In this document: in pieces, positions 7,703 through 62,433 of the stretch
Layout of the letters: each line of letters begins with the position of its first letter
Numbering within the stretch: the first letter of the stretch is position 1
Assembly (NCBI GenBank): GCA_001787205.1
Contig: MFWB01000008.1
Coordinates: 101,644-165,643, forward strand
From: Candidatus Nomurabacteria bacterium RIFOXYB1_FULL_39_16
GTDB lineage: Bacteria; Patescibacteriota; Minisyncoccia; Phycocordibacterales; UBA9973
DNA length: 64,000 nucleotides
Direction: 5' to 3'
The notes under the pieces: model-generated
Databases searched by the model: none
What the model saw: only the letters and a program-made list of their open reading frames with translations
What the model was told of the DNA's origin: nothing
Position numbers and translations under genes: made by a program

Positions 7703-7733
7703 ATATTTTAAAAATTATTAATAAAATTAAAAT

Positions 7734-7990
7734 CGCCCCGACAAAAATGAATGATTTTTCATTTTTGTCGGGGCGAGTCTACTTCGCGGTTCCACCCAAC
7801 TTTGTTCTTTTTATTAAATATTTACAGATTAGCCGTTTTGGTTCTGTTTTAAACAGAATTATGGTTGGTAGCCACAACAATCTCTATATATCCTAATAAT
7901 ATCAAAGACAATTTTTTTGTCAAAGGTTTCGCATAGGTCCAAGTTCTCGTATAGTTTAATTGTATTATTTTCCCAATATCCCCATTTCAG
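7734..7990 (-). promoter_or_regulatory. T-box-like leader or attenuator upstream of thrS
   Basis: On the minus strand, GTTGGGTGGAACCGCG (7785-7800) matches the T-box consensus AGGGTGGNACCGCG. It is followed immediately by an 18-bp perfect hairpin (7734-7775) and a U-rich tract that ends about 10 nt before the thrS ATG. Confidence 0.55.
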
Positions 7991-8007
7991 CCATGGCGTA
8001 AATGGGG
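7980..8007. repeat. Palindromic element copy A (ccccatttcagccatggcgtaaatgggg)
   Basis: Near-perfect 28-bp palindrome. Copy B at 8411-8440 is a perfect 30-bp palindrome with the same arms. The two copies bracket the ORF 8023..8400. Confidence 0.8.
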
Positions 8008-8022
8008 TAACGGTAGTATTAT

Positions 8023-8400
8023 TTGTGTATGAGTCCTAGATTCTATAAAGGTATGCAAGTAAACGCTTTTGGCTTGCCAGTTTTTAAAAATGGTAGAAAA
8101 AGTCGCGCAAAGACAAAAAACAGGAAAAAATCTTTTTATTACACTACCTTCTCTTCACCTTTTGAGAAAAATTCTTCTAAAAATTTAATCGTTATGTATG
8201 ATGTTCCCCATGTACAGAAAAAAGAGCGTGACTGGTTTCGCAGGCATTTAATAAAATTTGAATATATTATGATTCAAAAAAGTGTGTGGGTCGGACCGTC
8301 GCCATTGCCCAAGGAGTTCTTGAATTATTTAGAAGAAATAAAGATAGGGGACAAGTTTAGAACGTTTAAATTGGCGAAGTCTTATACAGGGAAGCTTTAA
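8023..8400 (+). CDS. Cas2-like or VapD-fold small protein (N-terminal extension; the true start may be the internal ATG at 8053)
   Basis: LIVMYDV ... ERDWFRRHLIKFEY-IMIQKSVW ... FRTFKL matches the Cas2 pattern: beta1 YD(I/V), a basic helix, G-R-(V/I)-Q-x-S-V-F, and a C-terminal R-I-Y-K-L strand. Confidence 0.45.
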   Translation: MCMSPRFYKGMQVNAFGLPVFKNGRKSRAKTKNRKKSFYYTTFSSPFEKNSSKNLIVMYDVPHVQKKERDWFRRHLIKFEYIMIQKSVWVGPSPLPKEFLNYLEEIKIGDKFRTFKLAKSYTGKL

Positions 8401-8410
8401 TTTTGATAAA

Positions 8411-8440
8411 GCCCCATTTACGCCATGGCGTAAATGGGGC
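8411..8440. repeat. Palindromic element copy B (gccccatttacgccatggcgtaaatggggc)
   Basis: Perfect 30-bp palindrome centred on CATG. Confidence 0.8.
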
Positions 8441-8541
8441 TAATGAGGTTAATAGAGAAGATTTCATTTTTGTTTATAAACCAACGATTATTTTGCTCAG
8501 TATTTTGCATTTCATCTTTAATATGCTAGGATAAGTCTATT

Positions 8542-33695: not shown

Positions 33696-33768
33696 GCCGG
33701 CATAGCTCAGTTGGTAGAGCATTCGCTTTGTAAGCGAAATGTCCGGGGTTCGATCCCTCGTGCCGGCT
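33696..33768 (+). tRNA. tRNA-Thr (anticodon UGU)
   Basis: gccggcatagctcagttggtagagc ... ttcgc-tttgtaa-gcgaa ... ggggttcgatccc ... tgccggc is a cloverleaf with anticodon TGT. CCA is not encoded. Confidence 0.9.
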
Positions 33769-50997: not shown

Positions 50998-51244
50998 AAA
51001 AAAAATTCCTACATTAACTTAATAATGAAGGAAAGATTTCTTGTGTGGACTAAACACAAAACTCATCTTTCCTGACACTTGCGTGTCTGGTTGGATTTAG
51101 CACCTTACAATTGCAGGTTGCTGTGGGGTCATCGAGCCAATTCTCTACCACCACTCTTGATACAAACTATTCAATTGTACATACATTATAGCACTATTTT
51201 ATAAATTTTGCTAAATTTCCTAACACTTTATCTCCGCCCTCACA

Positions 51245-61811: not shown

Positions 61812-62433
61812 AACGTTAAATATAATTAGTTAATAATCATGACGACCAACATGTGTGAAGCGTTGTAGTTATTTATAATTCGCTTCACTTAAATAGTTTT
61901 TATTTGTTATTATTTATATTTAAATAAGGGGTATGGGGTGGTGGTCTTGAATTGTTGCAGTGAGGTATTCTGGATCCAAGGTGATACATCCATACAGGGT
62001 TCCGCGAGCCTAAAACTAGAAAGGTACACAATTGACCACATTGAGGTTACTGGTACGAGTAACCAATTTCAAGATGTTATTTTAAAAGGGTTATTCGGGA
62101 TCGTGTTTTGCGCAAAGGCACATAGGGGTTGTCTTGAATCAAATCTAATATATAAATTCAATGTGAGTAAAAAATTTCTAATTTTCCACAGCTTTTTTGG
62201 GTTGTATAATTAGCTCAATGAGTGCTATCATATATGTACAATCCTAAACCAGAAATGGCATGGTATATAAGAAATCCCACGCGAGTAAAAACGGCTACAG
62301 AAGTCGCAACTACTCGCGTGGGTCTGTGCATCGAAAGGTGCATAGGATAGTCTCGAAAGAGATTATCGCGATCTTATGTAGCCTTTTTTGCTACCTCTTT
62401 GATTATATTATTAGTTAAAACCCACGCGAAAAT

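Follow-up and report, generated by a model that had tools for sequence, protein, structure and literature searches.

The locus described here raises the question of why a gene for a small Cas2-like protein should stand by itself between two copies of a palindrome. In the 64-kb stretch of DNA analysed (the window), the gene, on the + strand at 8029..8400, encodes a 123-aa protein (MSPRFYKG...), here called X, and has thrS and rpmF as neighbours. The upstream palindrome, copy A, occupies positions 7980..8007 (CCCCATTTCAGCCATGGCGTAAATGGGG) and contains two internal mismatches; the downstream one, copy B, occupies positions 8410..8441 (AGCCCCATTTACGCCATGGCGTAAATGGGGCT) and starts 10 nt past the stop codon (neither is assigned a strand). 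With up to 3 mismatches allowed, a search of the 64 kb yielded these two matches, against an expectation of 0 from 100 shuffles, and no further copy in the other 63 kb. The two copies bracket the gene as the original prediction had it; the measured distance, 432 nt from start to start, agrees with the roughly 430 bp then given. Copy B is indeed a perfect palindrome, and its 28-nt match (8412-8439) is perfect as well, but its length is 32 nt (arms of 16+16) and not 30. The open reading frame initially drawn from 8023 to 8400 is real; however, translation almost certainly begins with the ATG at 8029, the start shared by all homologues. Cas2-like motifs are present as proposed (LIVMYDVP, KKERDWFRRHLIKF, IQKSVWVGP and RTFKL), except that the G of the G-x-I-Q block, found in most homologues, is an E here. 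The reported absence of cas1 and of an array was borne out, no CRISPR-like array being detected in the window, nor any second family of direct repeats of this type.

Family profiles placed X closer to the PaaX repressor than to Cas2. The PaaX_M profile matched at 3e-12 (46.9 bits, cutoff 24), as compared to 5.1e-7 and 30.2 bits (cutoff 23.8) for Pfam CRISPR_Cas2 and 26.6 bits (cutoff 24.5; residues 55-91 only) for TIGR01573. The matches to Cas2 are limited to beta1-beta3, about half of the domain. PaaX_M and Cas2 were the sole family matches, neither the profiles nor the homologue alignment revealed a HUH or tyrosine motif, and X showed no similarity to any transposase or recombinase. The protein is made of an N-terminal beta-hairpin (YKGMQVN, residues 4-11), a disordered basic linker (residues ~20-50) and a Cas2-like/PaaX_M ferredoxin domain (residues 52-114), directly after which the chain stops, at residue 123. 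Likeness to Cas2 comprises the ferredoxin-like fold, a YD(I/V)P beta1 strand with a conserved Asp, a basic helix alpha1 and the QxSVW strand. The Asp, Asp58 in X, is of the Cas2 type and unchanged in 86/86 homologues; His61 lies three residues on. The invariance of Asp58 could mean catalysis, not binding alone. In an AlphaFold model of moderate confidence only (pLDDT 67.7), the N-terminal part is predicted to contain just the beta-hairpin and the disordered basic linker; Foldseek gave Cas2 structures as top matches to this model, with the VapD fold matching too.

The PaaX family, represented by Escherichia coli PaaX (PDB 8a39), combines a winged helix-turn-helix (wHTH), a central Cas2-like PaaX_M dimerisation domain and a C-terminal domain. 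X shares the PaaX_M domain but, in contrast to PaaX, measures only 123 aa, lacks both the wHTH that binds DNA in PaaX and the C-terminal ligand domain (PaaX_C), and has no paa genes in its neighbourhood. No recognised DNA-binding motif was found in X. Its closest sister proteins, of about 160 aa, retain a wHTH ahead of the same domain; when aligned to these, X is seen to lack the N-terminal helix and a segment of ~26 residues corresponding to helix 3 and the wing. Conservation extends over the full length of X (67-91% identity in more than 1500 sequence clusters), and the small proteins that combine a wHTH with the Cas2-like domain and share the arrangement of a gene between two palindromes form a very large family (1653 clusters at 50% identity). 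X, a small relative of the PaaX repressor, is widespread among candidate-phyla-radiation bacteria. No relatives were found in viral contigs or in phage and plasmid collections, and the literature on Cas2-like/PaaX proteins, orphan Cas2 and palindromic Cas2 loci of Patescibacteria yielded no description of this system. Hundreds of public records name the X family "CRISPR-associated endonuclease Cas2", a misnomer, as the family has no tie to CRISPR loci; surveys that count Cas2 genes in candidate-phyla-radiation bacteria would be inflated by this annotation.

The palindrome-gene-palindrome module itself is conserved in about 100 homologous Paceibacterota loci. The upstream palindrome is present at 91 of 99 homologous genes and the downstream one at 77 or more of the 99, with its centre falling between -19 and +61 nt relative to the stop codon; in 13 genes it overlaps the stop codon (..ISAMA*). 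Palindromes and promoter take up the spacers around the X gene. The exact protein occurs in a single context, thrS-X-rpmF, in 10 assemblies. In different genera the cassette sits at differing positions within one conserved gene block. One locus (L045) carries two X paralogues side by side, differing in palindrome centres and arms. The wHTH paralogues, often encoded within a few kb of X, have the same layout with cores of their own (CACGGCCGTG, GACGGCCGTC, CCGCATATGCGG and TTGCGATAGCGAA).

These loci bear on two possibilities raised originally, namely that the gene is a degenerate or minimal CRISPR-Cas remnant or encodes the VapD/Cas2-type toxin of a toxin-antitoxin module. Either would accommodate the matches to the Cas2 and VapD folds and the CRISPR-repeat size of the palindromes. 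Nevertheless, cas1, an array and other cas genes were absent both from the window and from the 80 related loci compared, among which neither a recurrent cas-like cluster nor a conserved cas neighbour was seen; the repeats, 432 nt apart, enclose a gene; and the Cas2 matches are confined to beta1-beta3. For these reasons, and in view of the strong conservation of the entire protein in so many clusters and the retention of layout and promoter geometry in about 100 loci, a remnant is rejected. The toxin module is rejected because there is no conserved partner gene: a check of the 80 loci for an antitoxin-like partner found no conserved adjacent ORF, the neighbours being varied housekeeping genes. 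Both possibilities appear extremely improbable.

The -10 box of the X gene's own promoter, TATTAT, lies at 8017..8022 on the + strand (-12 to -7 relative to the ATG), leaving 6 nt between the end of the box and the ATG. The box is a good one; no -35 element was recognisable in this promoter, and no Shine-Dalgarno motif was found after the -10 box. Given this short interval and the lack of a Shine-Dalgarno motif, the mRNA is presumed, and probably is, leaderless. The pattern recurs among relatives: a TAnnnT hexamer, most commonly TATAAT, ends 5-10 nt (mode 6) 5' of the ATG in 88 of the 93 distinct regions compared, whereas an SD-like motif occurs in only 5 of the 93. Relative to the promoter, presumed leaderless, copy A extends from about -49 to about -22, its dyad axis falling between 7993 and 7994, ~35.5 nt 5' of the ATG. 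Among the homologous genes with an upstream palindrome, 80 of 91 have the dyad centre 34-36 nt 5' of the ATG. Such rigid spacing between palindrome and -10 box is indicative of regulation. The geometry, conserved in ~80-88 loci, fits a predicted operator over the gene's own promoter, the role proposed here for copy A. Of the three readings first put forward, the one invoking operator sites came closest to the evidence.

Comparison of the sites defined a palindrome of 15+15 nt, with symmetry reaching position 15 of each arm and none beyond position 16. Half-site positions 1, 3, 7 and 10 are invariant, and there is hardly any variation at 4 and 9. At positions 2, 8, 11, 12, 14 and 15 the bases differ between sites yet are complementary, being paired in 74-88% of cases versus 29-56% in shuffles. 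Variable positions tend to be common to both copies of a locus (0.73, versus 0.42 between loci). The central 4 nt are self-complementary in 76 of 86 upstream sites. As to the relative orientation of the flanking copies, no consistent rule emerged (13 direct, 11 inverted, 45 symmetric or ambiguous). The self-complementarity of the variable positions also fits a hairpin or cruciform requirement or self-templated repair of the palindrome.

Residue 61 of X varies in concert with the centre of the palindrome. Proteins with H, S, A, Q, N or F at this position are associated with the centre CCATGG (58/58), those with E or D with centres of the CTATAG (T.A) type (24/24). The correspondence is exception-free (Fisher p = 3e-21) and, on a neighbour-joining tree, involves at least eight independent switches; for example, protein L007 (E, CTATAG) is nested among 86%-identical proteins having H or S and CCATGG. 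Downstream copies obey the same rule. Since residue 61 covaries without exception with the centre pair and has switched repeatedly, we argue that X reads its own palindrome directly. When mutual information was used to look for additional specificity residues, the outer positions of the palindrome showed no more than weak signals (MI/H 0.3-0.4), which fell in the basic linker and are inseparable from shared ancestry. The pair of Asp residues corresponding to Asp58 is close to the two-fold axis of Cas2 dimers, with 7-11 A between the two (PMC5438308). Base pairs -2 and +2 are separated by ~10 A.

The same coupling makes it highly improbable that the palindromes are bound by some other factor, such as a wHTH-bearing paralogue, with the X gene as merely one of its targets. 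X does lack a classical DNA-binding domain, and wHTH paralogues are often close by; however, these have different cores of their own, and it is a residue of X that is coupled, repeatedly and with no exception, to the palindrome centre. Should direct contact underlie the covariation, the Cas2/PaaX-central fold would itself read DNA sequence, with no helix-turn-helix; X would then differ from PaaX in that its Cas2-like domain appears to recognise the operator centre. The rule of one residue to one base pair (His-type with G.C, Asp/Glu with A.T at position 2) might be usable for engineering.

Altogether, these data suggest that X is probably, though by no means certainly, a mini-PaaX devoid of helix-turn-helix that regulates its own gene via the predicted operator over the -35 region, with the flanking palindromes as cognate sites. 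X would be a small dimeric protein that binds a specific DNA sequence and is built on the Cas2-like fold, which in PaaX provides the dimerisation domain, the wHTH having been lost in X while its closest relatives kept theirs. The two-fold axis of the X dimer would be placed on the palindrome dyad so that the loop following beta1 (Y57-D58-x-P60-H61), which in Cas2 dimers lies beside the two-fold axis, could read the central base pairs; the basic N-terminal linker would probably run along each 15-nt arm. Cas2 dimers in Cas1-Cas2 complexes sit on duplex DNA, a further likeness. The central part of PaaX is a dimerisation motif, and PaaX acts as a repressor at the promoter of its own gene, where it hinders RNA polymerase (PMC9493321). 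The PaaX operator overlaps that promoter, an arrangement that the geometry of the X site would fit; by analogy, X bound to the upstream site, in the -35 region of the presumed leaderless promoter, would most likely hinder RNA polymerase and cause autorepression. Copy B, near the stop codon, would be a second X site and, once transcribed, a strong hairpin; it probably insulates or closes the small transcription unit. This second predicted operator copy, along with further copies past or inside unrelated genes, sets X apart from PaaX.

In size, site length and proposed autoregulation, X also resembles the replication terminator protein RTP of Bacillus subtilis, a ~120-aa autoregulating dimer. 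RTP binds ~30-bp sites that adjoin the gene encoding it, and a few more such sites lie elsewhere in the chromosome. RTP, however, is a winged-helix protein and its Ter sites are asymmetric and oriented, whereas X has no winged helix and its palindromes are symmetric. The layout seen here runs through a very large family in these reduced genomes.

Could the palindromes act in RNA rather than in DNA? They would then be transcript hairpins that X binds or cuts in the manner of Cas2 and VapD ribonucleases (relatives of both kinds include such enzymes), thereby processing, stabilising or terminating mRNAs, its own included. As RNA, copy B is predicted to fold into a hairpin of -25.6 kcal/mol, solo copies elsewhere concentrate 15-30 nt past stop codons and between convergent genes, and the variable stem positions covary. 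Copy A, however, with its two mismatches, folds weakly (-14.3 kcal/mol, z -1.6) and, as it lies 5' of a canonical -10 box, is most likely absent from the transcript of the gene. Furthermore, the central 4 nt, which would form the loop, are mostly self-complementary and covary symmetrically with a protein residue, as expected of a dimer on duplex DNA and unneeded in a hairpin loop. Termination is also hard to square with the sites inside ORFs. Copy B has no U-tract, being followed by AATGAGGTT; the downstream copy forms a stable hairpin, yet a T-run is present in only 5 of 71 cases. The usual terminators of these genomes, by contrast, have the form of A-run/stem/T-run hairpins. A terminator scan called neither copy A nor copy B, and Rfam gave no match to the palindromes at E <= 1. 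We rejected the notion that the palindromes are ordinary intrinsic terminators, the T-run being rare and the genuine terminators different, and consider a module operating at the RNA level very unlikely.

An autoregulating X does not account for all palindromes. Among metagenome sites sharing the same 20-nt core exactly, 72 of 103 were solo in a first screen (73 on rescreening), as were 59 of 84 distinct contexts; a simple autoregulator leaves this predominance unexplained. The 59 solo contexts include 21 within ORFs and 9 between convergent genes, and many of the solo sites between tandem genes are 15-30 nt past a stop codon. A -10 box at operator distance accompanies 18 of the 59, which is chance level only, and the neighbouring genes, which represent 108 Pfam families, share no theme of function apart from synteny that recurs; on these two grounds, a regulon inferred from the solo sites was dropped. 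Some in-gene sites are in frame, in loops of UvrC, RNase HI and ComF. The idea that "chimeric" arms denote site-specific recombination was abandoned too, as a coding constraint acting on one arm accounts better for the asymmetry of the ComF site. Rickettsia palindromic elements offer a parallel, being palindromic DNA of ~100-150 nt found in frame within conserved protein genes, in surface loops. They are not known to have a dedicated adjacent protein gene, and one in-gene site of the X system is near length-neutral.

The solo copies invite comparison with REP/REPIN-RAYT systems, in which case the gene with its two palindromes would be autonomous and would have given rise to the solo palindromes as non-autonomous derivatives. 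Here X would be a metal-dependent Cas2-like nuclease or strand-transferase that nicks or cleaves the palindrome, maybe as a hairpin or cruciform, and copies, moves or maintains it, making the system selfish or domesticated. Like RAYTs with their REPs, a single small gene lies within its own class of palindrome, one type per paralogue (PMC3116915, PMC3337134); the flanking copies are found in ~75-90% of loci, the same palindromes are scattered past the 3' ends of genes, and inheritance is stable and apparently vertical. Also in line with such a system are the solo copies between convergent genes and in frame within the three protein genes, the tandem or clustered copies at L110, L083, L172 and L075, the complementarity reaching well past the 10-nt core (perfect in 44/59 solo sites), the varying position of the cassette by genus, and the invariant equivalent of the Cas2 catalytic Asp, since some Cas2 proteins are dsDNA nucleases (PMC5438308).

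Copy number, as judged from the window and from related genomic flanks, argues the other way. When 1.26 Mb of such flanks was scanned with an 8-mer core, 161 matches adjoined the gene and ~8 true palindromes lay elsewhere; extrapolated from the flanks, this would amount to a few per genome. The dozens of copies per genome that would mark a generic REP were seen neither in the window nor in the flanks; the solo copies in related metagenomic contigs do leave room for a REP-like side to the palindrome. Moreover, the fold of X is unrelated to the HUH/Y1, IS200-like transposase of RAYTs, and at the RNase HI site the palindrome takes the place of a loop, altering the length by one codon net instead of adding ~26 nt. 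No target-site duplications and no signs of transposition were seen. Recent mobility is disfavoured by the single thrS-X-rpmF context and by the lack of viral, phage or plasmid relatives; the single context and the absence of target-site duplications leave the proposal of a MITE that captured the gene unsupported as stated. Finally, the palindrome is fixed over the promoter, at a rigid distance from the -10 box that favours regulation. On balance, a REP/RAYT-like system is unlikely. Quite unlikely, in turn, is the related possibility that the X dimer is a stand-alone palindrome-specific enzyme, reading the dyad centre beside its pair of catalytic Asp residues, nicking or cleaving there, and so seeding, copying or homogenising palindromes past gene ends and within genes. 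Were it true, the Cas2/PaaX fold would here underlie a domesticated mobile system resembling REPIN-RAYT, and it would provide a concrete model of how a Cas2 ancestor might have become linked to palindromic repeats before CRISPR adaptation modules arose. The solo palindromes past stop codons and within conserved genes would be either an unrecognised kind of regulatory or architectural site or a new selfish element. A variant half-site, TCAGCC, shows a strong preference for the 5' arm as read on the coding strand (37 versus 5).

The small gene does stand between two palindromes, as originally predicted. Copy A, upstream, occupies positions 7980-8007 (CCCCATTTCAGCCATGGCGTAAATGGGG) and has two internal mismatches; copy B, downstream (8410-8441), is indeed perfect, its symmetry spanning 32 nt (arms of 16+16) rather than the 30 bp claimed. 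The difference between the copies, previously written ca/ac, is that between half-site variants TCAGCC and TACGCC. Allowing up to three mismatches, these are the only two palindrome matches in the 64 kb, and 100 shuffles gave none. The ORF predicted at 8023-8400 exists, but it opens with a TTG and its start has to be moved to the ATG at 8029, where all homologues begin. The gene thus defined (8029-8400, plus strand) encodes a 123-aa protein, X (MSPRFYKG...), with a -10 box, TATTAT (8017-8022, plus strand), between copy A and the ATG. The gene order is gyrB, thrS (minus strand), X, rpmF, nusB-nudix, rnc, smc, the neighbours all being housekeeping genes. Short ORFs at 7917-8039 (40 aa) and 8403-8534 (43 aa) are palindrome read-throughs (..PHFSHGVNG.. 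and ..PHLRHGVNG..) and almost certainly not genes.

Assigning X to the Cas2 fold was correct; the family, however, is PaaX-like. In Pfam, X matches PaaX_M best ('PaaX protein central Cas2-like domain'; 46.9 bits, the cutoff being 24; 3e-12) and CRISPR_Cas2 second (5e-7). X scores barely above the cutoff of the NCBIfam Cas2 model, with a match limited to residues 55-91; PADLOC returns partial matches to Cas2 only and PHROGs none. An identical sequence is on deposit as 'CRISPR-associated endonuclease Cas2 [Candidatus Nomurabacteria bacterium RIFOXYD1_FULL_39_12]'. The predicted structure includes, at the N-terminus, a short beta-hairpin (residues 4-11), as well as a basic linker that is disordered; a Foldseek search with this model returned Cas2, VapD and PaaX, every one with E > 1e-3. 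Asp58, which corresponds to the catalytic Asp of Cas2, is present in all 86 distinct proteins compared. More than 1500 Paceibacterota clusters are 67-91% identical to X over 88-100% of its length, N-terminal part included, which marks X as a conserved protein rather than a remnant. Since, moreover, the 64-kb window holds no CRISPR-like array, as already noted in the prediction, the idea of a CRISPR remnant is unsupported. So is that of a Cas2/VapD-type toxin.

A profile search of 1.8 billion representatives revealed a larger family around X (1653 clusters, ~160 aa) in which a wHTH stands ahead of the same domain. On sequence grounds, X is a short branch of this much larger wHTH + Cas2-like family. 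Alignment with the nearest wHTH-bearing sisters shows that X retains the YKGxxVNxFGxP motif; the first helix is missing, as are ~26 residues that make up the recognition helix and wing, whose place is taken by a basic linker. The central domain of PaaX is its dimerisation motif, and the protein obstructs RNA polymerase at the promoter of its own gene (PMC9493321). X appears to be an autoregulated PaaX-type DNA-binding protein minus the helix-turn-helix, its DNA apparently being read by the Cas2-like domain.

The arrangement recurs among relatives. We fetched 80 of the 258 genomic loci for relatives identified in GTDB species representatives, plus further metagenomic loci, and analysed 99 genes. 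Dyad-symmetric sites lie upstream of 91 of these and at the 3' end of at least 77. The upstream dyad is centred 34-36 nt 5' of the ATG in 80 of the 91 genes. Among 93 distinct upstream regions, 88 have a -10 hexamer, most commonly TATAAT, ending 5-10 nt (mode 6) 5' of the ATG. A -10 box so close to the ATG (~6 nt) and an SD-like motif in 5 of the 93 regions are the signature of a leaderless mRNA; its promoter has a good -10 but lacks a recognisable -35, and the palindrome covers roughly -50 to -21. The downstream copy is more loosely placed: measured from the stop, its centre ranges from -19 to +61 nt, and in 13 genes site and stop codon overlap, so that the core TCAGCCATGGCGTAA itself encodes the C-terminus ..ISAMA*. 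More distant wHTH paralogues have the same promoter and stop-codon layout with cores of their own (CACGGCCGTG, GACGGCCGTC, CCGCATATGCGG, TTGCTATAGCAA, GGACGATCGTCC and TTGCGATAGCGAA). The whole superfamily shares this layout.

Some wHTH + PaaX_M paralogues (~160-210 aa) are encoded a few kb or less from X genes or from solo palindromes, i.e., copies with no adjoining X gene (loci L003 156-692, L021 19323-19874, L034 6864-7343, L094 4706-5200, L116 3603-4085, L176 2136-2687 and L098 1001-1483). At the stop codon most of them carry a palindrome family of their own, which several repeat at the promoter.

Each half-site comprises 15 nt counted from the dyad, symmetry being absent past position 16. 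Upstream copies never vary at positions 1, 3, 7 and 10 and hardly ever at 4 and 9 (A.CG..T.TA). Positions 2, 8, 11, 12, 14 and 15 differ between loci yet stay complementary across the dyad (74-88% paired versus 29-56% when shuffled), and identity at variable positions is 0.73 between the two copies of one locus against 0.42 between loci. Palindrome similarity rises with protein identity. The TCAGCC variant (for TACGCC) is common and strongly favours the 5' arm on the coding strand, 37 to 5.

The centre of the dyad covaries with residue 61, a His in X, which follows the YD(I/V)P motif containing Asp58. In a set of 86 distinct X-type proteins, a non-acidic residue (H/S/A/Q/N/F) goes with a CCATGG centre (58/58) and an acidic one (E/D) with CTATAG or GATA/TATC variants (24/24); four half-changed centres (CCATAG, CTATGG) all accompany non-acidic proteins. 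There are no exceptions (Fisher p = 3e-21), and the residue class changed at least eight times on a neighbour-joining tree. One Glu-bearing protein with a CTATAG site (locus L007) is 86% identical to His/Ser neighbours that have CCATGG at the same chromosomal site. Downstream copies follow the rule too (46 and 14 cases, a few centres being uncertain). In Cas2 dimers the two Asp residues are close to the two-fold axis, with 7-11 Å between them (PMC5438308). In a duplex, base pairs -2 and +2 are separated by ~10 Å. The simplest reading is that an X dimer would place its two-fold axis on the dyad and its beta1-alpha1 loops on the central base pairs of duplex DNA. Correlations between the basic linker (residues 21-39) and outer positions 8-14 are weaker and inseparable from shared ancestry. 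Two side-by-side paralogues in locus L045 have clearly different sites; together with the separate cores of the wHTH paralogues, this shows specificity across the family.

These comparisons show the fold, the geometry and symmetry of the sites, and the coupling of residue 61 to the dyad centre. We infer that X, a wHTH-less mini-PaaX, sits as a dimer on a 30-bp operator in the promoter of its gene, with the centre at about -35.5, where, by analogy with PaaX at the Px promoter, it most likely represses rather than activates itself. Copy B, at the stop codon, would be bound by X as well and may close or insulate the small X unit between housekeeping genes. The copy B transcript is predicted to form a very stable hairpin (-25.6 kcal/mol). 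We discarded the possibility that the palindromes are ordinary terminators: a T-run follows only 5 of 71 downstream copies, and the real terminators in these genomes are A-run/stem/T-run hairpins.

Autoregulation does not account for the solo palindromes that lie past stop codons or within genes, potentially the more novel part. The 20-nt core ATTTACGCCATGGCGTAAAT has 103 exact sites in metagenome contigs, 72 without an adjoining X gene and 59 once duplicate contexts are removed. These 59 lie in ORFs (21), between tandem genes, typically 15-30 nt past the stop codon (17), between convergent (9) or divergent (3) genes, or at the end of a contig, with only one flanking gene in view (9). Complementarity extends perfectly past the 10-nt half-core in 44, and 18 have a -10 box at operator distance, about chance level. 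Neighbouring genes span 108 Pfam families with no common function. Sites inside genes (UvrC-like, RNase HI, ComF-like) translate in frame as ..HLRHGVN... In RNase HI the palindrome takes the place of a variable loop, for a net change of one codon; it is intact (..KTHLRHGVNVEI..) in L082 4231-4692, L159 11793-12257 and L161 166-630, and a 76% identical RNase HI (L024 56-514) has a decayed version, ATACAC-AG-GTGTAT, in the same loop. ComF palindromes lengthen the gene, one having two in tandem. Many solo sites separate tandem paralogues of a ~570-aa uncharacterised zinc-finger protein, centred 15-17 nt past the upstream stop. Solo copies are rare in the genomic flanks of X genes (~8 in 1.26 Mb; none in the remaining window), which suggests a few per genome.

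The ~570-aa family (N-terminus CQNCKKDFxIExxDFxFYEKIKVPPPTFCPECR, C-terminus YCExCYQQEVY) occurs at L002 10471-12213 and in L084, L086, L094, L100, L144, L156, L160, L163, L165, L170 and L173; its members often stand in tandem arrays, with the palindrome 15-17 nt past each stop codon, and the one member searched had no significant Pfam match. Two further arrangements were seen: a tandem array of 41-nt units with the palindrome in each (L172 ~2000-2128), and a larger palindrome, its arms perfect over ~50 nt, that encloses the same core (L149 ~2500-2613).

The main rival explanation is a REPIN-RAYT-like system. The resemblance is real, in that a lone stable gene is flanked by its own palindrome class, copies of which follow other genes (PMC3116915, PMC3337134, PMC5581495); however, the fold of X is unrelated and its palindromes are very few. 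Within the conserved block pheST-gyrB-thrS-rpmF-nusB-rnc-smc, the cassette position differs between genomes: between thrS and rpmF in the window, L001 and L130, and after smc in L003, L004 and L007-L011. Neither X gene nor palindrome is present between thrS and rpmF in L004, L007, L008, L010 and L011, relatives of similar identity occupy unrelated contexts in L002 and L176, and at least nine genomes have two or three copies. Over long periods, either the cassette has relocated or old paralogues have been lost differentially. An active transposon is countered by the identical context of the exact X protein in all 10 assemblies carrying it, the lack of relatives in viral, phage and plasmid collections and the absence of visible target duplications; the proposed MITE with a captured gene is likewise unsupported.

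Other elements were noticed in the window. The segment at 7725-7923 (minus strand) is a probable thrS T-box leader, with a strong promoter (TTGACA-16-TGnTATTAT, 7923-7896, minus strand), a T-box-like core (gggtggaaccgcg) and an intrinsic terminator with a T-run (7776-7733, minus strand). With an Rfam score far under threshold (26.6 bits versus 93, E = 1e-3), it may represent a T-box that is divergent or reduced. The segment is also conserved in L001, L008 and L010. A SAM riboswitch (51060-51166, minus strand, 61.4 bits) and a LOOT RNA (62241-62367, plus strand, 51.9 bits) exceed their Rfam gathering scores, and tRNA-Thr and tRNA-Ala genes lie at 33696 and 47987. Finally, ~40-100 nt past the X stop, promoters of the next gene contain 7-10 consecutive G separating the -10 from a TTGACA-like -35 (L030, L031, L032, L039, L045, L047, L057, L066), an unusual homopolymer for very AT-rich genomes and possibly phase-variable.
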